A DNA stretch of 64,000 nt from an uncultured Hyphomicrobiales bacterium (GCA_964498585.1 CAZCHH010000009.1:3613-67612), one strand, 5' to 3'. Positions 25 through 36,650 are shown, counted from the stretch's first letter. A program made the numbers and translations. The notes: generated by a model not told the origin, from the sequence alone.

Positions 25-290
25 TTCACCTCTCAAGAGTAATGTCACGGAGATAAGTAATTAATTATTATGGATAATTTCTTAAATTTCAAGTAGTCGT
101 CATTATTTGTAATATAATAATAAAAATTTAAAGAATTAAAGTGTTAAAAGGTCTTATTATTAAAGTTATTATAGTTTATATTTAAGATTGTATAAGTTAA
201 ATAAATATTTGTTTGTGTATGTAAAAAATTTGAATTATTCGCTTATCTCCGTGACATTACTCTCAAGAGGGGAATTGCGTAAGGTGAGTT
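25..290. mobile_element. Hairpin MITE-like element, family E. An inverted repeat of about 30-48 bp (cttatctccgtgacattactctcaagagg) flanks about 185 bp of AT-rich DNA.
   Basis: Positions 30-60 are the reverse complement of 245-273. The same repeat ends recur at 6195-6240 and 6526-6570. Confidence 0.5.
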
Positions 291-382
291 ATTCAAAAAA
301 AGAAAATTCAAAGAATTTTACTTCTTCATAAATTTTTTTTTATTTTTGTAAAATAATGAATAATTAATTCAAAAATAAAAAT

Positions 383-3094
383 ATGCCTTTAAGTTGGAAT
401 GAAATCAAAGAGCGGGCAGTCGATTTTTCAAAGGAATGGGAAAACGCCTGCAACGAAGAAGCAGACGCAAAACCCTTTTTAGACGCTTTCTTTAATGTAT
501 TTGGTATTAGCAGAAAAAAAGTGGCTACTTTCGAGCATAAAGTGAAAAAACTTGACGAGAGCGATGGCTATATTGATATGCTTTGGAAAGGGACGATTTT
601 AATTGAAATGAAAAGCCGCGGGAAAAATCTCGACAAAGCTTTAGTGCAGGCAAAAGAATATTTACAGGGTTTGCCTCAGCACGAACTTCCCAAATATCTC
701 CTTATTTCCGATTTCCAAAATTTCCGGCTCTTCGACCTCGAAGACGATACCAAAGTCGAATTTAAACTGAATGAACTTGTTTATAACGTCCAGCATTTCG
801 GATACATTCTGGGTTTTCAGAAAAAAGTTTATAAAGAGCAAGACCCCGCGAACATTCAAGCTGCTGAACGTATGGGGAAAATCCACGACAGATTGAAGGA
901 AATCGGCTATGACGGGCATCCGCTCGAAGTGTATTTGGTGCGGCTGCTGTTTTGCCTCTTTGCCGAAGATACTACCATTTTCAATAAAACGCAGTTTCAG
1001 GACTTCATTGAGCAAAGGACTAACGAAGATGGAAGCGACCTCGCTGCTAAACTGAACGAGCTTTTTCAGGTGCTTAATACTCCGCGTGAAAATCGCTTTA
1101 AAAATCTGGACGAGCAGCTTGCCGAATTTCCTTATATAAATGGACGTTTGTTTGAAGAAATGCTACCTACTGCGAGTTTCGATAAGAAAATGCGTTTGGC
1201 TCTCCTTGATTGCTGCGCGATTGACTGGGCAAAGATTTCACCTGCTATTTTCGGCTCTATGTTCCAAAGCGTGATGAATCCTAAAGAAAGGCGAAATCTC
1301 GGCGCCCACTATACTTCTGAAAAAAATATTCTGAAACTCATTAAACCGCTTTTCCTTGATGAACTTTGGAACGAATTTGAAAATGTAAAGGATAACAAAA
1401 GCAAACTTCAGGAGTTTCACAAAAAGCTGAGCAAACTGAAATTCCTCGACCCTGCTTGCGGTTGCGGTAATTTCCTTGTGATTACATACAGGGAGTTGCG
1501 GCTTTTGGAACTTGAAATATTGCGTTCACTTTATAAAACTGGGCAGGGCGTCCTTGATATTCGCGATATTATCTGGCTTGATGTGGATATGTTCTACGGT
1601 ATTGAATACGAAGAGTTCCCTGCACGCATTGCAGAAGTGGCTATGTGGCTTATTGACCACCAAATGAATCTGCTTGTCAGCTTTGAGTTCGGGCAGTATT
1701 TTTCCCGCCTTCCACTGAAAAAATCTGCTAATATAACAAACGGAAACGCCTTGCAAATTGACTGGGAAACCATTGTTCCAAAAAACGAACTTTCTTACAT
1801 TTTGGGTAATCCGCCCTTTGTTGGGTCTAAAATGATGACGGTTGAACAAAGAAACGATGTTTTAAAGGAAGCTAATAATATAAAAGGAAGCGGTGTTTTG
1901 GATTACGTAACTGCTTGGTATTTTAAAGCATCAAAGTTTATTCAGGGAACTAAAATTAAAGCAGCTTTTGTTTCTACAAATTCAATTACACAAGGAGAAC
2001 AGGTTTCTATTATTTGGAGCGAGTTATTAAACAATTATAAAATAAAAATTCACTTTGCACACAAAACGTTTAAATGGAGTAATGAAGCAAAAGGAAACGC
2101 TGCAGTTTATTGTGTAATAATCGGTTTTGCTAATTTTGATACTGATAATAAAAAGATATTTGATTATGAGGATATAAAAGGAGAACCTATTGAATTAAAA
2201 GTAAAAAATGTTAATCCATATTTAGTAGATGCCAAAGACATTTTTATTTTTAAAAGAAGAAAACCAATAAATGAAGTTCCAGAAATTGTTTTTGGAAATA
2301 TGCCGAATGATGGTGGAAATTTTTTTATTATAGATGAAGAAATTAAAGAATACATAGAACAGGAACCTTTATCAGAAAAGTATATTAAACCTTTTTTAGG
2401 TGCTCAGGAATATTTAAATGGAAAGAAAAAATGGTGTTTATGGTTTTATAAAAATTTTGAACCAAAAGATTTGAATTTAATGCCTATTACTTATCAAAGA
2501 ATAAAAAATGTTGAAAAATTAAGGAAAAACAGCAGTAGAAAAACAACAAGGAATTTAGCTTCTTTTCCTACATTATTTGGGGAAGTAAGACAACCTGATT
2601 CTGATTTTATTCTAATTCCGCGTGTTTCATCTGAAAATAGAAAAGTTATTCCTATGAGTATTTTTAACTCTGATTTTATTGTTGGTGATTCTTGTTTAGC
2701 AATACCAAATGCAAAATTATTTCATCTGGGAGTACTTCAATCTTCTATGCACATGGCATGGGTTAAATATGTTTGTGGAAGATTAAAAAGTGATTTCAGA
2801 TATTCAAATGAAATTGTTTACAACAACTTCCCCTGGCCTGAGCAGCCGGGCGAAAAGCAAGTCGAAGCAATAGAGAAAGCGGCACAGAAAGTATTGGACG
2901 CAAGAGCAGAGTACCCGGACAGTTCTTTAGCCGATTTATACGACCCCTTGACAATGCCCCCAAATTTAGTCAAAGCCCATAACGAATTAGACAAAGCAGT
3001 TGATTTAGCATACCGCCCGCAGCCATTTACAACGGAGGCAAAGCGTATGGAATTTCTCTTTGAACTCTACGAGAAAACTTTAAATAATGATTAA
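383..3094 (+). CDS. MmeI-family Type IIL restriction-modification enzyme: a single chain with an N-terminal nuclease, a gamma-class N6-adenine methyltransferase and a target-recognition domain.
   Basis: 903 aa. The N-terminus (MPLSWNEIKERAVDFSKEWE...FEHKVKK...LIEMKSRGKNLDKA) matches MmeI from memory. It has a GCGNFL SAM-binding motif and an NPPF catalytic motif (LGNPPFVGSK). Length and order match MmeI (about 919 aa). Confidence 0.85.
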   Translation: MPLSWNEIKERAVDFSKEWENACNEEADAKPFLDAFFNVFGISRKKVATFEHKVKKLDESDGYIDMLWKGTILIEMKSRGKNLDKALVQAKEYLQGLPQHELPKYLLISDFQNFRLFDLEDDTKVEFKLNELVYNVQHFGYILGFQKKVYKEQDPANIQAAERMGKIHDRLKEIGYDGHPLEVYLVRLLFCLFAEDTTIFNKTQFQDFIEQRTNEDGSDLAAKLNELFQVLNTPRENRFKNLDEQLAEFPYINGRLFEEMLPTASFDKKMRLALLDCCAIDWAKISPAIFGSMFQSVMNPKERRNLGAHYTSEKNILKLIKPLFLDELWNEFENVKDNKSKLQEFHKKLSKLKFLDPACGCGNFLVITYRELRLLELEILRSLYKTGQGVLDIRDIIWLDVDMFYGIEYEEFPARIAEVAMWLIDHQMNLLVSFEFGQYFSRLPLKKSANITNGNALQIDWETIVPKNELSYILGNPPFVGSKMMTVEQRNDVLKEANNIKGSGVLDYVTAWYFKASKFIQGTKIKAAFVSTNSITQGEQVSIIWSELLNNYKIKIHFAHKTFKWSNEAKGNAAVYCVIIGFANFDTDNKKIFDYEDIKGEPIELKVKNVNPYLVDAKDIFIFKRRKPINEVPEIVFGNMPNDGGNFFIIDEEIKEYIEQEPLSEKYIKPFLGAQEYLNGKKKWCLWFYKNFEPKDLNLMPITYQRIKNVEKLRKNSSRKTTRNLASFPTLFGEVRQPDSDFILIPRVSSENRKVIPMSIFNSDFIVGDSCLAIPNAKLFHLGVLQSSMHMAWVKYVCGRLKSDFRYSNEIVYNNFPWPEQPGEKQVEAIEKAAQKVLDARAEYPDSSLADLYDPLTMPPNLVKAHNELDKAVDLAYRPQPFTTEAKRMEFLFELYEKTLNND

Positions 3095-3115
3095 TGATTA
3101 ATGATTAATTGTTAG
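3084..3115. repeat. Heptameric tandem array (TAATGAT)n that overlaps the stop codon of the restriction-modification gene.
   Basis: Reads aataatgattaatgattaatgattaattgttag. It is in inverted orientation relative to the 3391-3438 array. Confidence 0.6.
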
Positions 3116-3123
3116 TTTGATTT

Positions 3124-3360
3124 GTCATTCTGAACCCCAAGATAAAGCAAGTGCTTTATTTAAATAGAGATGACATCAATTAACACAGTCATTCTGAACG
3201 AAGTGAAGAATCCAGAGAGTAGTGGTTAAAAAATTTCTGGATTCTTCACTTCGTTCAGAATGACCGACAAACTATAATGTAATTCCGAAACGAAGTGAGG
3301 AATCTCAAGTATCGTGGTAGCAATGACTTGTGAGATTTCTCACTTCGTTTCGAAATGACA
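3124..3360. repeat. Mosaic cluster of three hairpin elements: A (3124-3176), B (3188-3264, a 35-bp perfect stem) and C (3283-3360).
   Basis: All three show gtcattctga...tcagaatgac-type palindromes. Copies of each family recur at ten or more other loci in the window. Confidence 0.7.
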
Positions 3361-3390: not shown

Positions 3391-3438
3391 CACTAATCAT
3401 TTATCATTAACAATTAACAATTAATAATTAACAATTAT
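3391..3438. repeat. Heptameric tandem array (TAATCAT/TAACAAT)n that abuts the stop codon of the GH57 gene.
   Basis: Reads cactaatcatttatcattaacaattaacaattaataattaacaatt. Confidence 0.6.
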
Positions 3439-5157
3439 TTATTCTTTCCACCAGCTCAAATCAAGTTCGGTAAATAGAGAATTTCTTTGCTCTGTTTCTT
3501 CTATGTATTTCCAGTCCTGTGGAGAAAGTTGCCCAGTTTCCTTTAGCTTTTCAAGTTTATTGAGCATCGTATTGAAATCAGAATGATGAAATGAAAAGCG
3601 CTGTTCGGCATAGTCACGGGCAGAGAATGTATAAATCAGGAATTGCCAGTCAGATGCCTGCATTAATAATAACTCCCGAAGTGCCTGTTTCAAAACTCTC
3701 GTTTCATCTTCATTTAAATTATTTACGGGGTATTTTTCATAAACAGCTTTCAGACGATTTTCATTGTCGTAAAGTTGCACCCAAGTCCATTTTGTATCCT
3801 CATTACTCCAGACATCGTGATTATTATTTTCACCCCAGGAACCTTCGGGAAGTAGCATTACTTCCTTTGGTTTTATTCTGCTGTATTGCTCAAAAGTAGT
3901 TGCAGAATTAACGTAAGGAGAATGATGTAACCCTTTCAGCACTGCTTTTATAAATTGCGGACCTTCGAACCACCAATGCCCAAAAAGTTCGGTATCAAAA
4001 GGAGTGCAGACAGTAGCAAATTTTCCAGTTGTTCTTTGGTAAAAATTTGATGTGTTTTCGATATGATGGATAAAATGATTTGACTGCATATCAATTTTTT
4101 CTGCGGTCCAATCCGGGTGATAAAGAAGTTTATACATCATATCGGCTTTATTATCAGTAACCCGCCAATACCTTAGACGAGAATCATTACTTTTTTTATG
4201 GAAATCAAGATAGTTCGACTCTCCGGGATAGCCGACCTGACCACTCCAGACCTGCATAGAAATATCGTGATGTCGGGTAAAAGCTGCTGCAGTTCCATAT
4301 TGTGTCTTCTCGCTTGAACTACATTGAAATAAAGAAAGTGGTGATTTATCGAAGCTATTGGGAATATTTTCATAAGAATTTGAACCGATAGAAACAAATT
4401 TATCCTTTTCTGCATCAATAAAAACGCCGAGTGGAGTTGCTCTTTCTGTTAAATCCTGGTCTGTTATAAAATAATTCAAACCATACCGGGCAAGAAACTG
4501 CTCAATACCGGGTCGCAAATGCTCCTTGTGATAAGGAGCAATTGGAATAAGAGATTTCCAGTTATACGAAGGGCGGTAGGCACATTCTGGCAGCCATATT
4601 CCACGTGCTTCACGTCCAAAATGTTTTTTATAGTTTTCAGAAGCAAGCTGAACCTGCAAATTTACGCTTTTGTCTGTTGCAAGAAGAGGAAGATAGCCGT
4701 GAGTAGCGCCACAAGTAAGGATTTCTATAGCTCCGCTGTCCTGCAATTTTTTAAAAGCCCCTATAATTGAATTGCTGTATTTATGAACAAAGTCATTTTT
4801 CCTTTGCTCATACCACCACTGCCAGTATTTTGTTAAATAAATATGATGAAGGTCGTAGCCCCAGTCAGTATATTTTTTTTCATCACCTGAGGCAGCCGCA
4901 ATTTTTTCATCACAATATTTAATAAAAATTTCTTTGAAATCCTGATGCTCAAGCTGTTCACAAAGAACAGGAGATATATCCAAAGTAACTTTTGGATAAA
5001 TACCTTCTTCCATCAATTCATTAAATACATTAAGCAATGGGATATAACATTCGGCAACGGCTTCAGTGAGCCAATCGACTCCGTGGGGCCATGTGCCGTG
5101 GTGTAAAACCCATGGTAAATGGGTATGCAGGACTAATATGAAGTTTCCTGAGTGCAT
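3439..5157 (-). CDS. Glycoside hydrolase family 57 protein (alpha-1,4-glucan branching enzyme or amylase-like).
   Basis: The N-terminus reads LVLHTHLPWVLHHGTWPHG, typical of GH57. Length is 572 aa. Confidence 0.7.
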   Translation of the reverse strand: MHSGNFILVLHTHLPWVLHHGTWPHGVDWLTEAVAECYIPLLNVFNELMEEGIYPKVTLDISPVLCEQLEHQDFKEIFIKYCDEKIAAASGDEKKYTDWGYDLHHIYLTKYWQWWYEQRKNDFVHKYSNSIIGAFKKLQDSGAIEILTCGATHGYLPLLATDKSVNLQVQLASENYKKHFGREARGIWLPECAYRPSYNWKSLIPIAPYHKEHLRPGIEQFLARYGLNYFITDQDLTERATPLGVFIDAEKDKFVSIGSNSYENIPNSFDKSPLSLFQCSSSEKTQYGTAAAFTRHHDISMQVWSGQVGYPGESNYLDFHKKSNDSRLRYWRVTDNKADMMYKLLYHPDWTAEKIDMQSNHFIHHIENTSNFYQRTTGKFATVCTPFDTELFGHWWFEGPQFIKAVLKGLHHSPYVNSATTFEQYSRIKPKEVMLLPEGSWGENNNHDVWSNEDTKWTWVQLYDNENRLKAVYEKYPVNNLNEDETRVLKQALRELLLMQASDWQFLIYTFSARDYAEQRFSFHHSDFNTMLNKLEKLKETGQLSPQDWKYIEETEQRNSLFTELDLSWWKE

Positions 5158-5165
5158 AATTTCCT

Positions 5166-5498
5166 TTATAAAGCAGCTAATGCTTCTTGTTCAGTTTCAA
5201 CTACCTGGATAATTGAGATGAAACCGCTGATTTTAAAGATTTCTTTAATATTTTCATTCATAGCAAAAAGAACAACTGAGCCGTTTCCTTTTTTTGCTAA
5301 TTTTGCAAAAAGAAGAATTGCTCTAAGTCCAGAGCTGCTGATATACTCAATTTTTGAGAAATCAATCGCTAATTTGTTCTCACCAGCTTCGATAACCGGC
5401 TTAATTGTGTTTTCCAATGTTTCGCTGGAAACAGAATCAATTCTTCCGTTAATACGAATTATTAGTTTGCCGTCTTTTTTTTCCTGTAAAATTTCCAT
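5166..5498 (-). CDS. STAS-domain anti-sigma-factor antagonist (RsbV/SpoIIAA-like).
   Basis: 110 aa. Contains a conserved phosphorylatable serine context, DFSKIEYISSSGLRAIL. Confidence 0.75.
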   Translation of the reverse strand: MEILQEKKDGKLIIRINGRIDSVSSETLENTIKPVIEAGENKLAIDFSKIEYISSSGLRAILLFAKLAKKGNGSVVLFAMNENIKEIFKISGFISIIQVVETEQEALAAL

Positions 5499-5628
5499 TT
5501 GCTTTCCTTTTATATATAATGATTTGATTTTTCTTGCTAATTCATAACATTTTAAAATCCATACTACATTTCATTGCTATTTTTTGTATAAATTTCAAAG
5601 TGTAAAAATAAGAAAATAAAATGTATTT

Positions 5629-6039
5629 TTAAACTTTTTTAATTAAAGTTAATATGTTTTTATTATTAATTCTTTCATAATCAATATTATCCATAATATT
5701 CTTAACAAAGAAAATACCCAAACCGCCGATTTTCCTTTCTTCTAGCGATAATTCCGTGTTGGGGTCTTCTTTTAAAAGGGGATTAAATTCAATACCATCA
5801 TCTGTTATAGTTATTTTTAATTCACGATTTTCCAAAGAAAAATCAAGATTGATTAGATGTTCATTATTATCTTTAAAAGCATAATTGATGACGTTTGTAA
5901 CTGCTTCTTCCAATGCAAGATTGATATTAAATGTATGCTTAGCAACGGCTACCCACTTTTCTGAAAGTTGTTCAAGAAAGTTATCAAGTAAAATAATTTC
6001 GCTTATTTTATTTTTTAATGTTATGCTTGCTGTTTCCAT
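5629..6039 (-). CDS. Anti-sigma regulatory factor and serine kinase (RsbW/SpoIIAB-like, GHKL ATPase).
   Basis: 136 aa with a GGLGI G2-box. Adjacent to the STAS gene on the same strand. Confidence 0.65.
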   Translation of the reverse strand: METASITLKNKISEIILLDNFLEQLSEKWVAVAKHTFNINLALEEAVTNVINYAFKDNNEHLINLDFSLENRELKITITDDGIEFNPLLKEDPNTELSLEERKIGGLGIFFVKNIMDNIDYERINNKNILTLIKKV

Positions 6040-8025: not shown

Positions 8026-8237
8026 GCCATTCTGAAATCCCAGATAAAGCAAATGCTTCATTGTCATTGAGATGACATAATTTTACACAGTCATTCTGAG
8101 CGCAGCGAAGAATCCAGAGAATAGTGCTTAAAAAGAAATGTTTCTGGATTCTTCACTGCGTTCAGAATGACTGTGTTAAGCGATGTCATCTCCATTTAAA
8201 TAAAAGTCTTCCTTTATCGGAAGATTACCAATGACAT
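8026..8237. repeat. Mosaic hairpin cluster: A forward (8026-8078), B (8090-8171) and A reverse (8181-8237).
   Basis: Same families as 3124-3360. Confidence 0.7.
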
Positions 8238-8656: not shown

Positions 8657-11038
8657 ATGAATAAAAAAATACTTTTTATGATAACATTGGTTTTCTTGTC
8701 TTTGAATCTTATTGCTCAAGAACCAAGTTGCAAATCTGACTTATCAAAGAAAAATACAGAATTTAAAGTTGTTGAATTCCAAAATAGTAAGAGATTTTTC
8801 GATAAATCTGCACTGGGAATAACAAACAGTAAAGATTTTTTCAGAGAATTAATTCCGTTTGGGCAGGCAGAAGTATATAACCCGGGAAAGTATAAGAGCA
8901 ATTTTAAATTATCAGATTCGTTCCTTTCTGACGATAATATGTATTTAAATGATTCAGTTTTTCTCAAAAAATTATTGCCTGCAGGCCAAAATCTTGGAGT
9001 AAAAATTAAAGTAGCTACAAGAAAATTTGAAATCATTTCTCCTTATAATTTGACAGATGAAGCAAAAGCAGCTGTTCAAAAAGCCCCTAAATGGATTAGA
9101 AATGTGTTAGAAAGCACACTTTCTCAACTTTATCAAAATCGACAAATTGAATTAGCAAATATTATCAATAATTCAAACGACCCGTATATTGATGAAATTG
9201 CTTATGCAATCGCTTATTCTTCAACCGTATATTTAAATGGTCCTTATTGCTATCCCCAACTATTTATCGATAATGCTCAAGACATATATTCTCATGACAC
9301 ACATCTAAATTACGTAGAAGTTGTTGATTATGGGACCTCTGATACCGATGAAGATTATTATTCAACCTTAAAGTATTACAAAATTGACGCTGACAATAAT
9401 AAAATTCAAATCGAAGTACCTAAAGAAATCTATTATGAATATGTGGTTCATCCAAAAATTACCGATGAAATACCTGCATATATAGATGCACAAGCAGTTG
9501 AATACGGTTCTAACAATTCACATACGCTTAATATTACTGGCCCTGAAACAGGTAAATTTTGGAGAGATTACTTGTTTAATCATACAGAAGAAAGAATAGA
9601 TGTATCGGGAACTTATTATCCTGTTTTAAAAGAAAGTATGAGTCAATGTGAGGTTTTGTGGGACGAAACAAACATTAAAAGCAGCGCTGTAAAAGAAATT
9701 ACTAATTGGATAAATGATGTTATGGATTTTACTTCCGGAGTCGAAAGACCACATCAGCCAATTAGAATTTATTCTTTACATATAGGTCGTTGTGGAGAAC
9801 ACGAAGACTTAGCTGCTGCTGTTGCAAGAGCTTGTCTAATACCTTGCAGAGGTATCGAAGCATATTCATCTGACCACGTCTGGAATGAATTTTGGGATGA
9901 ACAATGGTGGCAATGGGAACCAGTAAATAATTCTTATAAAGATTTTTATTGCTATTCTAAAGGTTGGAAAAAGAAATTTGGTTCAATATTTGCCCGAGAA
10001 AGCTCCGGTGCCGTTGTTTCTGTTACTGATAGTTATTGCGAAAACACATCACAGCTAACAATTTATGCGTTAGATGCTAACAATAAACCTATTGATGGTG
10101 CTTTAGTTCAAATAGCTGCTCAAGGAACGATTAAAAACCCAAACCCACAAGAACCAGACCCAATCATTTATGATACTTATGGAACTACTGATAATGAAGG
10201 AAAATGTGTTTTTGCTGTTGATAGTAATGTAAATTATTTTGCCAGAGTTGATTGCAGTATTGGAAGTAGTCCTTCAGCTTCAAATAGCGTAATTCCTTTA
10301 ATGCAGAATACTCTACCAGATACTTCCTACCAATTTTTTATTGGAATATCAAATTCAATGCCCAGAGCGAAATTTACAAATATCAATATTCCATCAGATA
10401 CAACGGTTCTTTTTAGTTTGAAAGTTAATTACACTTTGCATAATTCTTTAATAAAAAACTTTATGTATTTTGATGACCTTAATAATCAGCGGATTTATTC
10501 TAAAGGACCTGTCATTGAACCAAATATTTTTATAACTGATGAAGAAAATTTCAATAAAATGGTTAATAACACTGATTTTCAGGCAATTTCCAAAACAAAT
10601 GAAGCAATTAGCAATTCATTTTCATTTAATATTAGCTCTGAAGAAAAAAACTGGTATTGCATCTTTAATAATGACAATATTCTAAACAACTACGCTTCTT
10701 TTAGTGCTTCATTTGCTTTATATTTATCTCCATTGCTCTCAGTTGAAAATAATAAAATTGAAGATAATTTTGAAATTTCTATTTTTCCAAATCCAGTAAC
10801 AAATGAAGCTCAAATCACTTTTAATATACAAAATCGTAGTTTAGTGAATTTAGAAATTGTTAATTCAAATGGTTATGTTGTTAACAGTATAGTCAACACT
10901 CAATTAGAAAAAGGAGAATACAAATACAATTTCCAGTGCAATGATATTAATATGAATAGCTTAAATTCCGGTATCTATTTATTGAGATTGACTAAAGATA
11001 ATGCAGTAATTACTAAAAAGTTCATTATTTTAAATTAA
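8657..11038 (+). CDS. Secreted protein with a transglutaminase-like cysteine-protease core and a T9SS C-terminal sorting domain.
   Basis: Signal peptide present. GRCGEH...DHVWNEFWDE resembles a transglutaminase-like Cys/His core. The C-terminus, FPNPVTNEAQITF...GIYLLRLTKDN...KFIIL, is a T9SS sorting domain. Confidence 0.55.
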   Translation: MNKKILFMITLVFLSLNLIAQEPSCKSDLSKKNTEFKVVEFQNSKRFFDKSALGITNSKDFFRELIPFGQAEVYNPGKYKSNFKLSDSFLSDDNMYLNDSVFLKKLLPAGQNLGVKIKVATRKFEIISPYNLTDEAKAAVQKAPKWIRNVLESTLSQLYQNRQIELANIINNSNDPYIDEIAYAIAYSSTVYLNGPYCYPQLFIDNAQDIYSHDTHLNYVEVVDYGTSDTDEDYYSTLKYYKIDADNNKIQIEVPKEIYYEYVVHPKITDEIPAYIDAQAVEYGSNNSHTLNITGPETGKFWRDYLFNHTEERIDVSGTYYPVLKESMSQCEVLWDETNIKSSAVKEITNWINDVMDFTSGVERPHQPIRIYSLHIGRCGEHEDLAAAVARACLIPCRGIEAYSSDHVWNEFWDEQWWQWEPVNNSYKDFYCYSKGWKKKFGSIFARESSGAVVSVTDSYCENTSQLTIYALDANNKPIDGALVQIAAQGTIKNPNPQEPDPIIYDTYGTTDNEGKCVFAVDSNVNYFARVDCSIGSSPSASNSVIPLMQNTLPDTSYQFFIGISNSMPRAKFTNINIPSDTTVLFSLKVNYTLHNSLIKNFMYFDDLNNQRIYSKGPVIEPNIFITDEENFNKMVNNTDFQAISKTNEAISNSFSFNISSEEKNWYCIFNNDNILNNYASFSASFALYLSPLLSVENNKIEDNFEISIFPNPVTNEAQITFNIQNRSLVNLEIVNSNGYVVNSIVNTQLEKGEYKYNFQCNDINMNSLNSGIYLLRLTKDNAVITKKFIILN

Positions 11039-13940: not shown

Positions 13941-16900
13941 ATGAGATATTTCATATTTATTCTTTTCTTTGTTTTTTCAAACATTTTATTAGCAAATAAC
14001 TCTATTGTTATCAATGAAGTATGTGCATCAAATGACAAATCTTTGCTTGATGAAGATTACGAAGCAAGCGATTGGCTCGAGCTTTATAATACAACAGATT
14101 CTTCAATAAATTTAAAAGAATGGAGAATTTACGACAAAAACGATTTTTCAAACGCATGGATTTTACCAGATACAGTAATTGAAGCAAAAAGCTATTTGAT
14201 TTTATTTGCTTCTGGCAAAGACCGGGTAAGCAGTGGATATTATAGAATTGAAGCTGGTGGAACAGGAGCAGTAGAATGGGCATATTGCGATTATTTTCGT
14301 TATCATTATCTAAAAGTAGCAGGTGATTTTGATATATCTGTTAAGATCCCTTATTTAGTTTCTGATTTCCTATTTTCTATAGCAGGTTTAATGATTAGAG
14401 ATTCATTAACTTTATCTTCGAACTATATTGGAATGTATTCTCAGCTACAAAGACGTGGCTCTTATTTTTGCATATTTCGACAAGATACTTCAATAATTCC
14501 TTCTTTAGTTCATGCATATAAAGAAGTAGAATATCCTGATGTAAATGTAAGGATTTCACGAAGAAATGATACGGTAACAACATATTACTGGTATAAAGAT
14601 TTTCAGGATTGGCTAATAATGGGACAGTTTTTTAATCAAAACCAAGACAGTGTTTATCTTGGAATTACTCTAACAGGTGCATTAAAAGATTCAATTCCTA
14701 TAGCATATTTTTCAGATTTAGTGCTAGATGGTGATACTATTAGTCTTGATAAATTATCAGTATTTGATAATACGACTTATAATAATTCAAGTTTTTATTT
14801 TAATGAATTGCATACAAATTTTGAATTAAGTAAAGATGGTGAGAAGATTTTTCTTTGGGATAGAAATGGTAAACTAAAAGATGAATTTGAAGTTCCTAAA
14901 TTAGCAACTGATGTTAGTTTTGGAAGATTTTCAGATGGCAAAGCAAGAAAAATGTACTTTTTTCCGGCAACTCCAGAAAAAACCAACCAAAATGAGCTTA
15001 AAAAAATTCTCAACGAACCGATATTTTCAGTAGTTGGAGGATTATTTAGTAAGGCTTTAAATTTAACATTTACTTGTGAAGAAGAAAATGCAAATATTTT
15101 CTATACATTAGATTGCTCTGAACCAACAGAAAACTCTATACTATACTTAGGAGAAAGCATATTAATTGATAGCACCATTGTTATAAGAGCTAGAATTTTT
15201 AAAGATAATTGCTATCCGAGCAGAATAGTATCTAATTCATATATTTTTGACAACCCTGATGGAATTCCTATTGTGTCTATTGTTGCTTCTCCGTTGAGTT
15301 TAAATGATTCGATAAACGGTATCTTTTCACCAATTAATATTTTAAAAAATATTGAGATTCCAGTTAGTTTTACATACTGGGATGTTGATCCAAAACAAAA
15401 TTATAAAAGTGAGATTGGAATAAGAATTCATGGTAATTATGCACGAACACTTCCGCAGAAAGCTTTAAGATTGATATCAAGAAGTAAATATGAAAACAGT
15501 GAATTTGAATTTAATTTTTTTGGAGAACAATCACTAAAAAAATATAAAAAATTTGTGCTGCATAATAGTTCAAATGATTGGCAAAAAACATTAATAAGAA
15601 ATGATTTCTCTACTATTTTGTCAAAAAAGATTTTATATAAAGAAACACCAAATTCTAAACTTGTTATAACATACTTAAATGGAGATTATTATGGTATAAT
15701 GCATCTTATGGAAAGAATTGATGAAGACTATTTATCAGTAGCTTTTGATGTTGACGAGAAAAAAATCAATTATTTAAGAGATTATAATTTAATTAAAGCA
15801 GGAACCGGTATTGATTACCTTTCAATGTATAACAAAATAATGCAAATGGATATGGATAACGATTCGTCTTATAATGAAATTTCAAAGCTTATTGATATTG
15901 ATAATTTTATTGATTATACATTTTTAGAGAATTTCTGTGTCAATTTAGATTGGCCATATAAAAATATTAAATACTGGAATTCTTCTGAAATTGATTCAAA
16001 ATGGAGATGGTTATGGGACGATATGGATTTATGCTTTGGAAACTGGGGATTTTATCATACAGATATAATTAAACAAATGTGCATTTATGATAGCTCTTAT
16101 TTTTCTTTATTTTTCCAAAAATTAATCAAAAATAAAACACTTACTTTAAAACTTATAAATAGATGGGCTGATTTATTAAATTCTTCTTTTCATGAATATG
16201 AAACAGTGCCTATTTGGGATAGTTTAGTAAATAATATTCGTCCATTTATCTCAAGACATCATGAATTATGGGACAGTTCTGCAATTGATTGGGAAGATGA
16301 AACTATTGTAGTTACAAAATTTTTAAAAAGGCGCCCTGCTGCATTAAGGTCACAATTGTTATATAATTTCAATTTAAAAGATTCATTGATTTTAAGCATT
16401 GATTCAGATAATAAATATAATAAGTACATTAGAATTAACTCTCTTTCATTAAAAGAATTTCCCTGGACAGGTATCTATTTCCAGGGCATTCCAATTACTC
16501 TTGAAGCAGTGCCGAAGCCCGGATATGAGTTTGTTAGCTGGGGAAATGAATTACTGCCAGACACCTGCTTCCTCGAAATTGCTTTCGATACCTCGGAAGT
16601 TGTTTTAAATCCTATATTTAGACAAAAAGGAAATGACGACCGGACAATTATTTTCAATGAAATTATGTATAAAAGTTCAGATGATTTAAATTGTGGCGAC
16701 TGGGTTGAACTTTATAATATTTCTGATAAAACTGTTGATATTTCGAACTGGATTTTCAAAGATGATGACGATGAGCATATCTTTATAATTCCTCAAGAGA
16801 CTACCTTAAAATCAGAAGAATATCTTGTTTTATGTGAGAACGAAGAAGAGTTTTCAAATACTTATCCTAATGTATTGAATTATATAGGAAATTTCGACTT

Positions 16901-17414
16901 TGGACTTGGGCGTCCAGACATTATTCGATTGTTCGATTCAGATAACAAACTAATTGATTCTGTTGCTTATTCAAATGCTGCACCTTGGGACGCAAATGCC
17001 GATGGCACCGGTTACAGTTTAGAACTGAATAAATTCAATATTGACAATAATAATCCACTTAACTGGTATGCTTCATTAGTAAATGGAGGCACTCCGGGCG
17101 AATTAAATTCTGAATACGTATCAGTCGAAGAAATAGAAACGGAAAACGGAATATATTTTAAATGTTATCCAAATCCTTTAAGTGATTATTCTGTAATAGA
17201 GTATGCAGTTCCATTCAACACAAATATTTCAATTAATATTCATAATTTACTTGGAAATAAAATCTATGAAATATATTCTGGGTTGGCTGAAAAAAACAGG
17301 ATTCATTTTTCAACTGAATCACTTGCAAAAGGAGTATATTTTATTAAATTTGAAGCTGTAATTGAAAATAAAAAAGCAGTGAAGGTATTGCAGGTTGTAA
17401 AAGGAGAGTTCTAA
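13941..17414 (+). CDS. Secreted protein with two lamin-tail domains, a CotH kinase-like domain and a T9SS C-terminal sorting domain.
   Basis: N-terminal LTD (VINEVCASN...DWLELYN) and a second LTD (IIFNEIMYKSSDD...DWVELYN). CotH-like segment GIRIHGNYARTLPQKALRLI. C-terminus is YPNPLSD...GVYFIKFEAV. Confidence 0.6.
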   Translation: MRYFIFILFFVFSNILLANNSIVINEVCASNDKSLLDEDYEASDWLELYNTTDSSINLKEWRIYDKNDFSNAWILPDTVIEAKSYLILFASGKDRVSSGYYRIEAGGTGAVEWAYCDYFRYHYLKVAGDFDISVKIPYLVSDFLFSIAGLMIRDSLTLSSNYIGMYSQLQRRGSYFCIFRQDTSIIPSLVHAYKEVEYPDVNVRISRRNDTVTTYYWYKDFQDWLIMGQFFNQNQDSVYLGITLTGALKDSIPIAYFSDLVLDGDTISLDKLSVFDNTTYNNSSFYFNELHTNFELSKDGEKIFLWDRNGKLKDEFEVPKLATDVSFGRFSDGKARKMYFFPATPEKTNQNELKKILNEPIFSVVGGLFSKALNLTFTCEEENANIFYTLDCSEPTENSILYLGESILIDSTIVIRARIFKDNCYPSRIVSNSYIFDNPDGIPIVSIVASPLSLNDSINGIFSPINILKNIEIPVSFTYWDVDPKQNYKSEIGIRIHGNYARTLPQKALRLISRSKYENSEFEFNFFGEQSLKKYKKFVLHNSSNDWQKTLIRNDFSTILSKKILYKETPNSKLVITYLNGDYYGIMHLMERIDEDYLSVAFDVDEKKINYLRDYNLIKAGTGIDYLSMYNKIMQMDMDNDSSYNEISKLIDIDNFIDYTFLENFCVNLDWPYKNIKYWNSSEIDSKWRWLWDDMDLCFGNWGFYHTDIIKQMCIYDSSYFSLFFQKLIKNKTLTLKLINRWADLLNSSFHEYETVPIWDSLVNNIRPFISRHHELWDSSAIDWEDETIVVTKFLKRRPAALRSQLLYNFNLKDSLILSIDSDNKYNKYIRINSLSLKEFPWTGIYFQGIPITLEAVPKPGYEFVSWGNELLPDTCFLEIAFDTSEVVLNPIFRQKGNDDRTIIFNEIMYKSSDDLNCGDWVELYNISDKTVDISNWIFKDDDDEHIFIIPQETTLKSEEYLVLCENEEEFSNTYPNVLNYIGNFDFGLGRPDIIRLFDSDNKLIDSVAYSNAAPWDANADGTGYSLELNKFNIDNNNPLNWYASLVNGGTPGELNSEYVSVEEIETENGIYFKCYPNPLSDYSVIEYAVPFNTNISINIHNLLGNKIYEIYSGLAEKNRIHFSTESLAKGVYFIKFEAVIENKKAVKVLQVVKGEF

Positions 17415-17434
17415 AAATTTGAAATTGTCTGTTA

Positions 17435-17552
17435 TTCCGAAACGAAGTGAAGAATCTCAAGTATCGTGGTAGCAAGGATTTGTGAGATTCTTCACTTCGT
17501 TTCGGATTGACAGCCCCCAGTCATACGAACAACTTGTTGCTCGTATGACTGG
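17435..17552. repeat. Hairpin element C (17435-17512) plus the hairpin cagtcatacgaacaacttgttgctcgtatgactgg (17518-17552).
   Basis: Lies between two convergent genes. The second hairpin resembles the family-G hairpins at 55395-55522. Confidence 0.6.
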
Positions 17553-24298: not shown

Positions 24299-25123
24299 TT
24301 ATTTTGCTACTTTATATCGAATTAATTCAGTTATAAAACCTAAATAATCATAAGTTTGAAATACTATTGGAATCTCGATTGTATGTGATTCTAAATGAGT
24401 TTTTACTATTCCGATATTTTCTGCTAACCAAATATGATAATTCAAATTAAAACCGAAATCCTTTGTTAATGGTAAAGGACTACTAACAGAAATTTCACCA
24501 TCAAAAGAAATTGGAATTGTATATTTTATAGCATTAACACTTGCTCCGTCAACAGAAATTGATTCTTCTGCTGTCCTCTTTGATTTAATTTTCATAACAC
24601 CGTTTATTTTTATATCTCCAAGTGGTGTGTCCGGTATAGTAAAATCAGTTATATCCTTACTGTAAACTTCACGCTCGCCAGCATTTTTTGTATCGATAAT
24701 TCTTAACAGAGTGTCGTTAATATTGAAAGGTAGTTCAAACCCACCTAATTCTTCAAATTGAAAAAAGCTGTTCATATAGTTTGAACGAATATACAAACTG
24801 TTATTTTCATAAATTAATTGCATTTCGTTTTGTTTTTCATAGTTATTATCAATTAAAGTAAAAATATCATATTTGCTAAGTGTTTTGCCGAAAGCAAGTT
24901 CTGTTCCTGTAATAGCTGCTGAATCAATCGAAGGATTATTGGGGCTTTCTTTTTGGTTCTCAATATCCAAAGAAAAATCATTGAAAATCCAATAATTTCC
25001 TGTAGTACTTGGAAAATAATTCTTCGTTGTGTCTGGTTCATTGCTTGTTCCTGAATCATCAGAACAAGAAACGGCAAAAAATACCAATGCTATCAGCATT
25101 ACTGTAAATTTGAGATTTTTCAT
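24299..25123 (-). CDS. Hypothetical lipoprotein.
   Basis: Signal peptide and lipobox (AVSCSDD). Confidence 0.4.
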   Translation of the reverse strand: MKNLKFTVMLIALVFFAVSCSDDSGTSNEPDTTKNYFPSTTGNYWIFNDFSLDIENQKESPNNPSIDSAAITGTELAFGKTLSKYDIFTLIDNNYEKQNEMQLIYENNSLYIRSNYMNSFFQFEELGGFELPFNINDTLLRIIDTKNAGEREVYSKDITDFTIPDTPLGDIKINGVMKIKSKRTAEESISVDGASVNAIKYTIPISFDGEISVSSPLPLTKDFGFNLNYHIWLAENIGIVKTHLESHTIEIPIVFQTYDYLGFITELIRYKVAK

Positions 25124-25540
25124 AAATAATTCCTATAATAATTTTTTTTCAATATATTTATAAAACAAATTTAGCTAATAAATGTAAAATAACAAAACAG
25201 AAATCATTGCTAAATTCATTTGGAGAATTAATTTTCATTTTTAAGTAATAAGGTCCTTACCTAATTTAACTCTAAAACATTAAGAAAAGAGTTTAATAAT
25301 AGTTATATTCTGAATTTTTACATTTAATATTATATTTTGTTATCAAAATTTAATATTATATGATATTATAATCATATTAATTAATAATCAAATCTGTATT
25401 ATAATAATAAAATGTCATTTAATTATTATTAAAAAATAGTTAAATATAAATATAATTTACTTTTTTATAATAATAATTTATTTAATCGCTATAGAAACTA
25501 TTAAGATAATAATAATTAAATAGAAGAAAATATCAAAAAA

Positions 25541-25735
25541 TTAAAAGATAGAAGTAATTAAATAAAAGGAAGAAACAAAAAAACGAAAGGAAGAAGAAAA
25601 TAAATAAAAGAAAGAAATAAATAATCGAAAAAAAGAAGCATTTAGACGAAAGGAAGAAACAAAAAAACAAAAGAAAAAGGCAAAAAAATAAAAGAAAGAG
25701 GTAATTAAATACAATAAATGAATAAGGGATTTCAT
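25541..25735. repeat. Homopurine (A/G only) tract of about 190 bp containing two imperfect ~70-bp direct repeats.
   Basis: Unit aaaggaagaaacaaaaaaacgaaaggaagaag...aaaggaagaaacaaaaaaacaaaagaaaaagg. The reverse strand is pure pyrimidine. Confidence 0.7.
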
Positions 25736-25868
25736 AATTTAATTTCAGAACTCCTAACTCCTTTATTTTCGTTATGGGGTCCGGAGCTCTGATATTAAAG
25801 AACTTATTTTCTCTTACTCATATACATTTTCAGAAAGGGATAGAGAAAAAACTTTTATTTAACAACTA

Positions 25869-26441
25869 TTAGAACCAAAAATAACTGATTTGAGCAAAAA
25901 TCCCTTTTTTGTTATGGTAACCGACACCGAAGCCGATATATTCTTCTAATAGATACTGCAAACCAGCACCGAAAGTAATACCGGATGTCGTTTCCGTTTT
26001 ATACATATAAAGGTCACTTAGCTTATTTTCAGAATCTCTTTTTCTTGCTAAAACCGAATCAGCTTGAGTAAAAAAGCCGACATTTCCAAAAACAGAAAAA
26101 TAATCATCAATATCGTAGAATAAATAACCATCTAAACTTAAAATAATAGTAGGGTAATTTTCTGTTGAAGCAATATCTTCTGGTCTGATCCTTTCGTAAG
26201 TAATATAATTAGGAATATCTTTAGCAAAACCAGCTAAATTAAGTCCAAATCCTAAGTAAGAATAACGGAAACCAAGCCCTGCACCAAGTCCATTTTCTCC
26301 GTAGCCAATGTCTAAGAATAATTGCTTAATATTTAACGGTTCATCATAATCGCCATAATAATCATCATCTTGCGAAAATGCACTGTTCGATAATGCAACA
26401 ACAAAACACAGCATTAGCAAAATATTTAATAATTTTTTCAT
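25869..26441 (-). CDS. Outer-membrane beta-barrel protein (OmpA-beta-barrel/porin-like).
   Basis: Signal peptide, alternating beta-strands, C-terminal AQISYFWF. Confidence 0.45.
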   Translation of the reverse strand: MKKLLNILLMLCFVVALSNSAFSQDDDYYGDYDEPLNIKQLFLDIGYGENGLGAGLGFRYSYLGFGLNLAGFAKDIPNYITYERIRPEDIASTENYPTIILSLDGYLFYDIDDYFSVFGNVGFFTQADSVLARKRDSENKLSDLYMYKTETTSGITFGAGLQYLLEEYIGFGVGYHNKKGIFAQISYFWF

Positions 26442-26501
26442 CGAAATATCCTTTTTATTTGTAAATATAAGTTAATAAATTTCATTTTTAAGTATTATTT
26501 A

Positions 26502-27266
26502 TTAGAAATTTTCTTTAAGATAATTTTTTAAAGAATTATAAGAAATACTATTAATGCTCTCATTAATACAAAAATCTTTAAAATTATTGAGGAGCGGTAT
26601 TAATTTTTTGTCAAAGAGAAAAAAATCAATGAAATCAGTGGGAATTTCTATATTATCGAAATCCAGTCCATTGATATTAAAATAATTGAAAAAGGGCTGA
26701 ATTAAATTACAAAATAAGTCTTCATTCAGATTTGCAGTATTTTCATTGTCGATTCTTTCAACCAATTCCTGAAACCAGAAAACAGAGCAACTCATCTCCT
26801 GCGATTTTTCAATTTCATTTTTAATTGCTTTGATTAAATAATTATAATCTGAGAAATAAAGAAGTAATCTCTTTATTTCATCATATTGCTTTTGTTTTTC
26901 CTTTTTAAAAATAAAACTTGTTAATGTGTTTCTAGGTCTTAACAAATAATTAATTTTAAATTTCACAGCACTTTCAGCAACTTCATAAAATATAGCTATT
27001 GGGAAGCGGGAATTGAAAAAATATTCTTTATCCAAAGTAGAAAATAAACTTTTAATTTTGTTAGTATTTGTATTAAAAAATTGATTTGCTTCGCGGGCTA
27101 ATCCTTCTTGATAAATCCACCAGGAGACTTCTGCAAGGAAAAATGTTCTGTAGCTTTTATCAATTTTTTTATTCTTTAATATATCAATAAGATAGATATG
27201 GCTCGAAGTTGTAGAAAACTCTTTTTTTATTTTATTAATTTCTCTGTCTATGATTTGTTTGAACAT
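26502..27266 (-). CDS. Hypothetical protein.
   Basis: 254-aa ORF with coding-like composition and no recognisable motif. Confidence 0.35.
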   Translation of the reverse strand: MFKQIIDREINKIKKEFSTTSSHIYLIDILKNKKIDKSYRTFFLAEVSWWIYQEGLAREANQFFNTNTNKIKSLFSTLDKEYFFNSRFPIAIFYEVAESAVKFKINYLLRPRNTLTSFIFKKEKQKQYDEIKRLLLYFSDYNYLIKAIKNEIEKSQEMSCSVFWFQELVERIDNENTANLNEDLFCNLIQPFFNYFNINGLDFDNIEIPTDFIDFFLFDKKLIPLLNNFKDFCINESINSISYNSLKNYLKENF

Positions 27267-27713
27267 AATTTCAAATTTTAAATAAGTATCTTACAATGTA
27301 TTAAATGTTAAATAAATAAAGTCATAACTAATTAATTACGTTCATTTTTGTAGTTAACAAACAATAATTATTAAAAATAAAAGATTTACTTTGAAAGCAA
27401 ATATAAAAAAAGTAATTGTAAAAAACAACGCATTTGTATTAATTCAGAGTGAAAAGCAAATAAAATAAGCATAAAGCAATTTGTAATTTATTGCGAAATT
27501 ATTCATTATGAGTCAAATATAATCCATTTATTTTTAGTTATTGAGAAGAATTATTAAAATTTAAAAATGAAAAAAGAATGAAAATATATCATAAAAATAT
27601 AAATTTGTTACTTTTTTTTAAAAATGTGTTGTCTTATTAATGAAATATTATTAAATTAGATATTGTATAAAGAAAAAAAAATAATTTAATAAATAAATAA
27701 TTAAGGTATAAAA

Positions 27714-36612: not shown

Positions 36613-36650
36613 TAATTGACAATTAACAATTAATAATTAACAATTAAATT
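36610..36650. repeat. Heptameric tandem array (TAACAAT/TAATAAT)n that begins at the stop codon.
   Basis: Reads taataattgacaattaacaattaataattaacaattaaatt. Confidence 0.55.

Follow-up and report, generated by a model that had tools for sequence, protein, structure and literature searches.

Enzymes of the MmeI family cleave about 20/18 nucleotides (nt) from an asymmetric site and methylate adenine on a single strand. Went et al. reportedly engineered specificity swaps in the laboratory in MmeI relatives such as BREX PglX in 2024. In the MmeI-DNA structure, the bases are contacted by the target-recognition domain (TRD) and by K487, S488 and K489 of the methyltransferase domain, which approach base pairs 2 and 4 from the minor groove (PMC4833311). 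A covariation code for the recognised positions was validated by mutagenesis (Morgan & Luyten 2009, PMC2731914). Natural TRD exchange in the family was proposed in 2009 for the Microcystis aeruginosa PCC7806 homologs IPF4888 and IPF5080, which are 98.5% identical but only 55% in the TRD (PMC2731914). Allelic TRD diversity and domain movement are known from Type IIG, Type I (hsdS) and Type III genes of Helicobacter and others (Furuta et al.; PMC2853133, PMC3077401, PMC3983042). This report describes an MmeI-family Type IIL restriction-modification gene at positions 383..3094 (+ strand, as all features of the gene given below) of a 64,000-nt stretch of DNA, the window (CAZCHH010000009.1:3613-67612, deposited as an uncultured Hyphomicrobiales bacterium). 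Gene and protein are called Q. An AT-rich block in the middle of Q is, with a probability of roughly 0.8, a self-contained exchangeable recognition module, and the composition step at its edges is a standing feature of the family and not a fresh scar.

Like MmeI (Methylophilus methylotrophus, PDB 5HR4; PMC2731914, PMC4833311), Q comprises five domains in one polypeptide, and its specificity positions can be aligned one to one. The pairs of code residues differ (R/D, S/R and K/D in Q, E/N, A/R and E/R in MmeI), as does the site, which is predicted to be xxGRAG for Q and is TCCRAC for MmeI. The host of MmeI is a betaproteobacterium, whereas that of Q is low in GC and Kapabacteria-like, and Q is known from sequence alone. 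Alleles of the Q family resemble the Microcystis pair in being 98–99% identical as opposed to 44–48% in the TRD proper. Unlike in that pair, junctions common to three pairs on two backbones (the conserved parts of the gene on both sides of the module) are defined at the nucleotide level, the module reaches into the methyltransferase domain in agreement with the structural contacts, smaller parts are exchanged as well, and a synonymous composition step is found family-wide. Furthermore, the copies lie in different assemblies and loci and are not two paralogs in one strain. The cases of Furuta et al. share with Q the conserved flanks, the substituted recognition domains among close relatives, the presumed recombination in the flanks and the change of specificity as a consequence. 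They concern S-subunit-like TRDs located between repeats and exchanged within species (Helicobacter, Campylobacter, Streptococcus), whereas Q is a single-TRD gamma-class fusion without flanking repeats and exchange in its family spans many Bacteroidota-related hosts. Engineered BREX PglX likewise has a replaceable recognition part in an MmeI-like methyltransferase; the junctions of Q are natural. Recognition-domain exchange is already known in kind, and Q is a new, well-resolved instance, to which the features that set it apart from the Microcystis pair and the scale of reassortment are added here.

The composition step divides Q into segment A (amino acids (aa) 1–486, nt 383–1840; GC 0.415, GC at third codon positions (GC3) 0.447), segment B (aa 487–812, nt 1841–2818; GC 0.276, GC3 0.147) and segment C (aa 813–903, nt 2819–3091; GC 0.454, GC3 0.484). 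In 150-nt windows GC is 0.37–0.49 up to ~1800, 0.23–0.31 over 1950–2775 and 0.43–0.45 past 2780. A maximum-likelihood fit of GC3 with two breakpoints places the block at aa 487–812 (nt 1841–2818), with GC3 of 0.147 within and 0.452 outside. The log-likelihood ratio is 46.2, compared to 4.1 ± 1.7 (maximum 9.3) in 300 shuffles in which synonymous codons were permuted within each amino acid only, and to 1.6–7.7 in 13 other long open reading frames (ORFs) of the window. A Mantel-Haenszel test of block against flanks, stratified by amino acid, gives χ2 = 79.9. The step is therefore one of synonymous codon choice and not of amino-acid content. An initial annotation of the window had placed an AT-rich block at 1860–2820; the fitted edges lie within 20 nt of these positions, the step is highly significant, and the plots of GC and codon usage it had proposed as a check show a sharp step in GC and GC3 at both edges. 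It had also put the NPPF motif at ~1807 (nt 1808–1819, aa 476–479) and had rightly described the first part of the gene as GC-richer, with a figure of 43–47% that is slightly high (0.35–0.49, mean 0.415).

The other ORFs of the window have a GC3 of 0.25 (0.19–0.36 per gene; 326-codon windows with a mean of 0.24 and a standard deviation (sd) of 0.046). Given this spread, the flanks of Q lie ~4.6 sd above the host and the middle lies ~2 sd below it. Neither part looks native, the flanks being far over the host and the middle somewhat under. The host-atypical part of Q is mainly the GC-rich flanks (+0.20 GC3); the block, at -0.10, is near the family norm of -0.07 to -0.09.

Relatives of Q were taken from a full-length protein search, their identity was split by segment and their DNA was retrieved and codon-aligned (proteins are numbered P00xx, loci L0xx). 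P0005 and P0006 share 98%/56%/98% and 98%/53%/93% of their residues with Q in segments A/B/C, whereas P0001–3 share 97–99%/90–94%/93%. On a more distant backbone, P0004 shares 87%/83%/82%, and P0007–9 and P0016 share 87%/55–56%/82%. Best matches thus differ between segments, as the initial annotation had predicted for searches made segment by segment. At the nucleotide level P0005 and P0006 are 100% identical to Q from 383 to ~800, which is most of the nuclease domain, despite their different modules. Beyond ~800, identity in 30-codon windows is 89–98% up to ~1780 and then 50–86% inside the block; it is ~92–94% at the right junction and 83–91% near the 3' end. Overall, identity is 96% in the 5' flank, 89–93% in the 3' flank and 64–67% in the block.

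Mismatch frequencies in A/B/C are 3.8%/33.0%/6.9% for Q and P0005 (χ2 407, p = 1.6e-90), 3.7%/35.8%/10.9% for Q and P0006 (χ2 442, p = 3.7e-98) and 0.8%/31.7%/2.7% for P0004 and P0008 (χ2 542, p = 5.6e-120). The junctions are identical in these three independent pairs, which represent two backbones. Mismatches turn from sparse to dense at nt 1816–1825, directly after GNPPFVG, and turn sparse again at nt 2815–2827, where VYNNFPWP begins. After GNPPFVG the alleles continue with SKMMTV, KKEQNS, TAYQNI or SRMMDL, and conservation resumes with (I)VYNNFPWP. The module between the junctions (aa 481–811, 1823..2815) has a GC3 of ~0.15. The Q-type module is found on both the Q and the P0004 backbones. 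Regarding locus context, P0004 and P0008 share a downstream rpsD, Q, P0001 and P0003 adjoin glycogen-metabolism genes, and P0006 lies elsewhere (short contigs). Recombination exchanges the block as a unit, and true exchange junctions are located at its edges.

Two observations concern the backbone itself. The first ~420 nt of Q, together with 86–159 nt upstream, are 100% identical in L001 and L002, with three different modules among these alleles; the rest of the backbone shows 2–11% differences from both loci (30-codon windows). The identical 5' end suggests a very recent sweep or a conversion of that end. Furthermore, the P0003 allele (L008) is 93–98% identical to Q over the backbone at the nucleotide level, but over ~100 nt of the nuclease domain (window ~608–700) the identity is only 78–80%. 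The backbone itself is therefore a recombination mosaic.

Residues of MmeI from K487/S488/K489 through R810 align to residues 482–806 of Q, all within the module. S482, K483 and M484 (1826..1834), the first module residues, correspond to the minor-groove loop K487/S488/K489. The last specificity residue, R810 of MmeI, corresponds to R806 of Q, five residues ahead of the right junction. By alignment, the exchanged unit therefore includes all residues that contact bases and extends little beyond them at either end. The AT-rich block had been described as the DNA-specificity region of the enzyme, which agrees with this alignment. Its equation with the TRD holds insofar as the TRD is contained in it; the block also starts inside the methyltransferase domain, straight after NPPFVG. 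The annotated TRD is thus only a part of the moving unit, which also takes in the minor-groove loop and what remains of the methyltransferase domain.

Specificities were predicted by applying the covariation code (PMC2731914) at the positions corresponding to E751, N773, A774, E806, R808 and R810 of MmeI. The residues of Q are R, D, S, K, D and R. R747 and D769 are predicted to read G at position 3, S770 and R806 a purine at position 4 and K802 and D804 G at position 6, which gives xxGRAG. P0001–3 (R, D, T, E, R, R) would recognise xxGRAC and P0006 (K, D, K, K, D, S) xxGCAG. The K/S pair, as in P0006, was engineered into MmeI by Morgan & Luyten to read C at position 4 (PMC2731914). P0005 (K, G, T, K, D, V) yields no clear prediction for position 4. 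There are weak hints that M640 of Q, at the position of MmeI K645, may read A at position 2, by analogy to the K645M result, and that R719, at the position of A723, may read C:G at position 1. An exchange is expected to retarget methylation and cleavage together, since both depend on one module in one polypeptide. Closely related Kapabacteria-like strains are accordingly predicted to differ in their methylation motif (xxGRAG, xxGRAC or xxGCAG).

Within the module three sub-blocks can be distinguished. B1 (aa 481–560, 1823..2062) varies independently of the TRD. B2 (aa 561–620, 2063..2242), in which the methyltransferase domain ends, is conserved and also has a low GC3. B3 (aa 621–811, 2243..2815) is the TRD proper and diverges most; two family members share a median of 55% of its residues. 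P0004 and P0008 are near-identical over nt ~2063–2240, i.e. in B2, although both sides differ; B1 and the TRD proper can therefore vary separately. An even shorter unit is the patch …VKYVCGRLKSDF… (aa 794–805, 2762..2797), which contains K802 and D804, predicted to read G. P0001/P0003, whose module is of the Q type, differ from Q here at 11 of 36 nt, and four of these changes are purely synonymous. The synonymous codon difference in the remaining TRD is about 10%. The patch turns K802/D804, the pair deciding position 6, into E/R in P0001 and P0003 (predicted to read C), and the same switch from K…D to E…R is seen between P0008 and P0016. This pattern points to short-patch conversion as the simplest account.

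Reassortment was surveyed among 198 non-identical proteins of the family. Segment A is at least 95% identical in 466 pairs; in 156 of these, TRD identity is below 70%. The pairwise identities of A and B3 are correlated with a Spearman coefficient of 0.24. With backbones clustered at 93%, a single cluster of 58 proteins includes 13 TRD types, and of the 62 TRD types distinguished, 10 are shared between backbone clusters.

The composition step is not peculiar to Q. The genome sample comprised 77 usable loci out of 80 retrieved, mostly from Bacteroidota and relatives (67 with a flanking-gene background), and the metagenome sample 55 loci (45 with such a background). GC3 is higher in A than in B at 75 of the 77 genome loci, with a mean difference of 0.11; relative to flanking genes B lies at -0.086, A at +0.026 and C at +0.029. 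The same order is found at 51 of the 55 metagenome loci, where the deviations are -0.066 for B (p = 1e-4), +0.024 for A (not significant) and +0.019 for C. A significant low-GC3 block (log-likelihood ratio of at least 10) is present at 39 of the 77 loci; the median positions of its edges are aa 462 and 814 in the numbering of Q. Some blocks are steeper than that of Q (GC3 within/outside of 0.29/0.68 in L039, 0.24/0.62 in L086 and 0.25/0.63 in L085). The step is also present in the cultured isolates Adhaeribacter rhizoryzae, Flavobacterium fragile and F. chungnamense, with 0.58/0.23/0.70 in A/B/C of Adhaeribacter L086, and is therefore not an assembly artefact. An AT-rich domain across orthologs, which the initial annotation had regarded as the mark of a family-wide compositional feature, is thus largely what was found.

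Invariant columns have a GC3 of 0.28 in the block and 0.39 outside in the family, and of 0.19 and 0.46 in Q. Furthermore, GC3 is uncorrelated with conservation (rho = 0.01 in the block, rho = 0.06 in the flanks). The low GC3 is a regional property of the block and not a per-site one. In the literature searched there was no specific report of AT-rich recognition domains or of a family-wide synonymous AT bias, only of a general deviation of restriction-modification genes in GC and codon usage. A synonymous AT bias that follows blocks and depends on neither amino acid nor residue conservation may thus be a new observation. It could bear on the AT-richness of accessory or non-recombining DNA.

Q and P0004 carry the same module type on backbones with 87% protein identity. 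Their nucleotide divergence is uniform (18.2%/16.6%/21.0% in A/B/C, p = 0.2), with synonymous codon differences of 0.38, 0.30 and 0.40. The A-B-C combination of Q therefore predates the split of Q and P0004, and parsimony places the replacements in the lineages of P0005, P0006 and P0008. Four module types on Q- or P0004-type backbones have a GC3 of 0.145–0.196 as opposed to 0.41–0.56 in the flanks, and the hosts of these alleles are all low in GC (background GC3 of 0.24–0.33). Third-position changes in the clade, polarised with the P0004 clade as outgroup, amount to 33 GC>AT versus 31 AT>GC in A and 10 versus 15 in B. Neither block visibly drifts, and both appear compositionally stationary. 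The sharp boundaries had been taken as the signature of a recombinational swap between homologs of different origin. The block is an exchanged unit with true junctions at its edges, but the composition step is no evidence of such a swap in Q. A swap in Q from a homolog of differing GC is contradicted by the uniform divergence from P0004, the equally AT-rich alternative modules and the family-wide dip. For genome scanning this means that a sharp composition step within a gene is by itself no proof of recent transfer; in Q it is an old, family-general module boundary.

In the proposed mechanism, the module consists of the minor-groove loop past motif IV together with the remaining part of the methyltransferase domain and the TRD. 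Modules are reassorted among alleles, probably by homologous recombination between alleles or paralogs after horizontal transfer, with crossovers anywhere in the conserved flanks, so that the visible junctions would mark the end of conservation, past GNPPFVG on the left and ahead of VYNNFPWP on the right. Units smaller than the module (B1, the TRD on its own and the ~36-nt position-6 patch) move as well. Module and backbone most likely come from different gene pools. The backbone would be kept alike across hosts by frequent recombination; its GC3 is near that of the host family-wide and 0.15–0.23 over that of the low-GC Kapabacteria-like hosts of this clade. The modules would be too diverged for internal recombination and would be replaced wholesale, and like accessory DNA in general they lie closer to the AT-rich end. 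The natural splice points could serve as a design rule for chimeric enzymes or BREX PglX variants.

Two programmed mechanisms were considered and rejected. No second copy of the module is present in the 64-kb window (tblastn with all module types); the lone weak match, in an ORF at 41948–44239 (E = 0.006), is a glycosyltransferase and spurious. Inverted repeats are absent from Q, those found being intergenic only, and neither a recombinase nor a reverse transcriptase was found among 15 window ORFs scanned against Pfam. A shufflon or other site-specific inversion, as in hsdS, was rejected on the lack of silent cassettes in the 64 kb, of internal inverted repeats and of a recombinase in the 15 ORFs. 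A diversity-generating retroelement was rejected since no part of the gene is repeated in the window and no reverse transcriptase is encoded in these ORFs.

Several points weigh against an exchangeable, long-standing module. No donor was found for any module; for P0005, P0006 and P0008, even the closest relatives in the TRD do not exceed 70% identity. Among the 198 proteins and in a metagenome scan, the Q-type module is seen only with its own two backbones. The scan with the Q module found it at one locus only (L090, 94%), on a Q-type backbone, and no donor with a distant backbone. A protein search with the module alone returned fragments of up to 581 aa with a best identity of 69%; it omits known full-length relatives of 83–94% identity and is thus unsuited to donor finding. 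Most of the sequences compared are metagenome assemblies, in which conserved flanks can give chimeric joins. The lower synonymous difference between Q and P0004 in B (0.30 versus 0.38 in A) would allow for a slightly younger module, a comparison on which the extreme AT content at third positions also bears by lowering the saturation ceiling in B. The polarised counts are small, and some of the apparent substitutions may be recombination imports. Finally, P0008 has all six code residues of P0004 despite a TRD identity of ~50%; not every swap need therefore change positions 3, 4 and 6.

For the AT bias, a regional, recombination-linked cause is favoured over a per-site selective one. Three readings are left that the data do not separate, namely modules that resemble accessory DNA on a backbone whose GC3 follows a pool mean across hosts, as proposed above, a backbone refreshed from GC-richer hosts, and GC-biased gene conversion. 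The second is possible, if tentative. A GC-richer MmeI gene would have entered low-GC Kapabacteria-like hosts and been refreshed by GC-richer alleles, with the modules stemming from the local low-GC community. The flanks lie +0.20 over host GC3 here and +0.15 to +0.23 in all sibling hosts (background 0.24–0.33), and across the family backbone GC3 appears to be drawn towards a pool mean (about +0.07 where host GC is low, about -0.03 where it is high). The new modules of P0005, P0006 and P0008 were, moreover, AT-rich already on arrival. However, two backbones that are ~18% diverged both hold a GC3 of 0.45–0.56 in low-GC hosts, the flux in A is balanced (33 versus 31), and no GC-rich donor backbone above 82% aa identity was found. 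Modules that lie under host GC3 even in GC-richer hosts (about -0.16) are left unexplained.

GC-biased gene conversion, itself debated in bacteria, is the less probable of these two. Heteroduplex repair would lift the GC3 of the backbone, whereas the non-homologous module, forming no heteroduplex, would drift to an AT-rich mutational equilibrium, with a step at the edges of homology. This would fit an effect that is regional and does not follow per-site conservation, block edges that equal the limits of homology, and two blocks that share one gene, strand and transcript but are stationary at different GC3 of ~0.45 and ~0.15 (AT>GC changes per AT site of ~0.118 in A and 0.053 in B). The largest excess is moreover found in the clade with the most recent exchange (100% identical 5' ends with different modules). 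Against it, backbones are family-wide merely at host level (+0.03), B2 recombines with the backbone in P0004/P0008 and has a low GC3 nevertheless, and the counts are small. If the conversion reading were true, MmeI-family genes would offer a natural within-gene control for testing it in bacteria.

An improbable account is that a recent recombination put the AT-rich recognition region of a low-GC homolog into a GC-richer gene and that the boundaries are its un-ameliorated scar. The breakpoints at 1841 and 2818 do lie within ~20 nt of the exchange junctions at 1822 and 2815, and the GC3 of the module (0.147) is closer to that of the host (0.25) than that of the flanks is (0.45). The uniform divergence of Q and P0004 speaks against it, as do four unrelated module types of equally low GC3 on the same backbones and a family-wide dip with conserved edges. 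Additionally, the flanks show no net GC>AT decay and the module no AT>GC gain.

It is very improbable that the arrangement is a metagenome-assembled chimera joined via conserved flanks. The window is a contig of the metagenome-assembled type from NCBI, and flanks are up to 100% identical between alleles. The same A-B-C arrangement is, however, present in NCBI, JGI, ENA and Logan assemblies at 92–97% nucleotide identity, the divergence from P0004 is uniform, and the genomes of cultured isolates (L015, L061, L070 and L086) show the same step. Amino-acid composition or conservation-linked codon selection, with AT-rich residues in a variable domain and GC-ending codons at conserved ones, is refuted by the Mantel-Haenszel test within amino acids, the lack of correlation between GC3 and conservation and the invariant columns of Q (0.19 in B, 0.46 in A and C), although the block is less conserved (mean column conservation of 0.71 versus 0.87 in A) and rich in K, N, I and F.

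Q is assigned to the MmeI family (Type IIL/IIG single-chain restriction-modification enzymes) by its domains, its motifs and a full-length match. The 903-aa polypeptide combines a nuclease, a helical spacer, a gamma-class N6-adenine methyltransferase, a TRD and a C-terminal bundle. It aligns end to end with MmeI (PDB 5HR4; phmmer, 1168 bits, residues 1–899 of Q onto 1–902 of MmeI), and all five MmeI domains are far over their Pfam cut-offs. MmeI_N, the N-terminal PD-(D/E)XK nuclease domain (aa 11–173, 413..901), lies in the GC3-rich backbone and is followed by MmeI_hel (aa 179–257). The left exchange junction is located inside MmeI_Mtase (aa 333–593, 1379..2161). MmeI_TRD comprises aa 617–820, and the C-terminal helical bundle MmeI_C (aa 824–898, 2852..3076) is again part of the GC3-rich backbone. 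The catalytic motifs are intact, namely D65 and E75-M-K77 of the D…ExK motif, motif I (DPACGCGNF) at 356 and motif IV (NPPF) at 476, which is the final conserved element ahead of the left junction.

Downstream of Q are genes for a GH57 branching enzyme, a STAS protein, an anti-sigma kinase and a CoA-transferase; the upstream DNA is intergenic up to the window edge. Q thus stands alone, and its downstream neighbours include neither a separate methyltransferase nor a specificity subunit. An exact look-up of the protein found no entry. Homology to alleles in other contexts is limited to the gene, 86 nt upstream and 35–80 nt downstream. The upstream flank travelling with the gene is 296..382 (homology begins at 296/297), and the downstream flank common to sibling alleles is 3095..3176 (homology stops at 3129–3176). 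Since homology is confined to the gene and these short flanks, Q also moves as a small unit. The STAS-domain protein and the HATPase_c_2 anti-sigma-type kinase past the GH57 gene form a partner-switching pair (5166–6039, - strand).

The window as a whole has a GC content of 32.3%, and very low values are found at 25001–28000 (0.22–0.26 per kb versus 0.32 for the window). Neighbour proteins of Q belong to 90%-identity clusters with members named 'Candidatus Kapabacteria bacterium'. Three large secreted proteins carry type-9-secretion sorting domains (Por_Secre_tail). They are transglutaminase-like (8657–11038), of the CotH and LTD type (13941–17414) and IgGFc_binding-like (27714–31934), respectively, and are consistent with a Bacteroidota-related host (Fibrobacterota-Chlorobiota-Bacteroidota group, FCB).

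The intergenic DNA on both sides of Q is made up of short repeats that recur, dispersed, at other places of the window (36–125, 242–291, 3126–3264, 3282–3352 and 3406–3441). The repeat at 3126–3264 matches 8028–8171 (83%), 3282–3352 matches 17434–17504 (93%), 36–125 matches 6547–6458 (88%) and 3410–3437 matches 36619–36646 (100%). A perfect inverted repeat of 29 nt is formed by 3188–3216 and 3236–3264. These repeats look like miniature inverted-repeat transposable elements (MITE) or repetitive extragenic palindromic (REP) elements. Copies are also present beside sibling alleles in L002, L005 and L008. Contig CAZCLJ010000008.1 (L010/L002), labelled 'uncultured Hyphomicrobiales bacterium', has a flank GC of 37%, shares the Kapabacteria-like intergenic repeats of the window and codes for a Laminin_G_3 protein of 2165 aa in which a type-9-secretion sorting tail is faintly recognisable. 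Probably, this contig is mis-binned or mislabelled.

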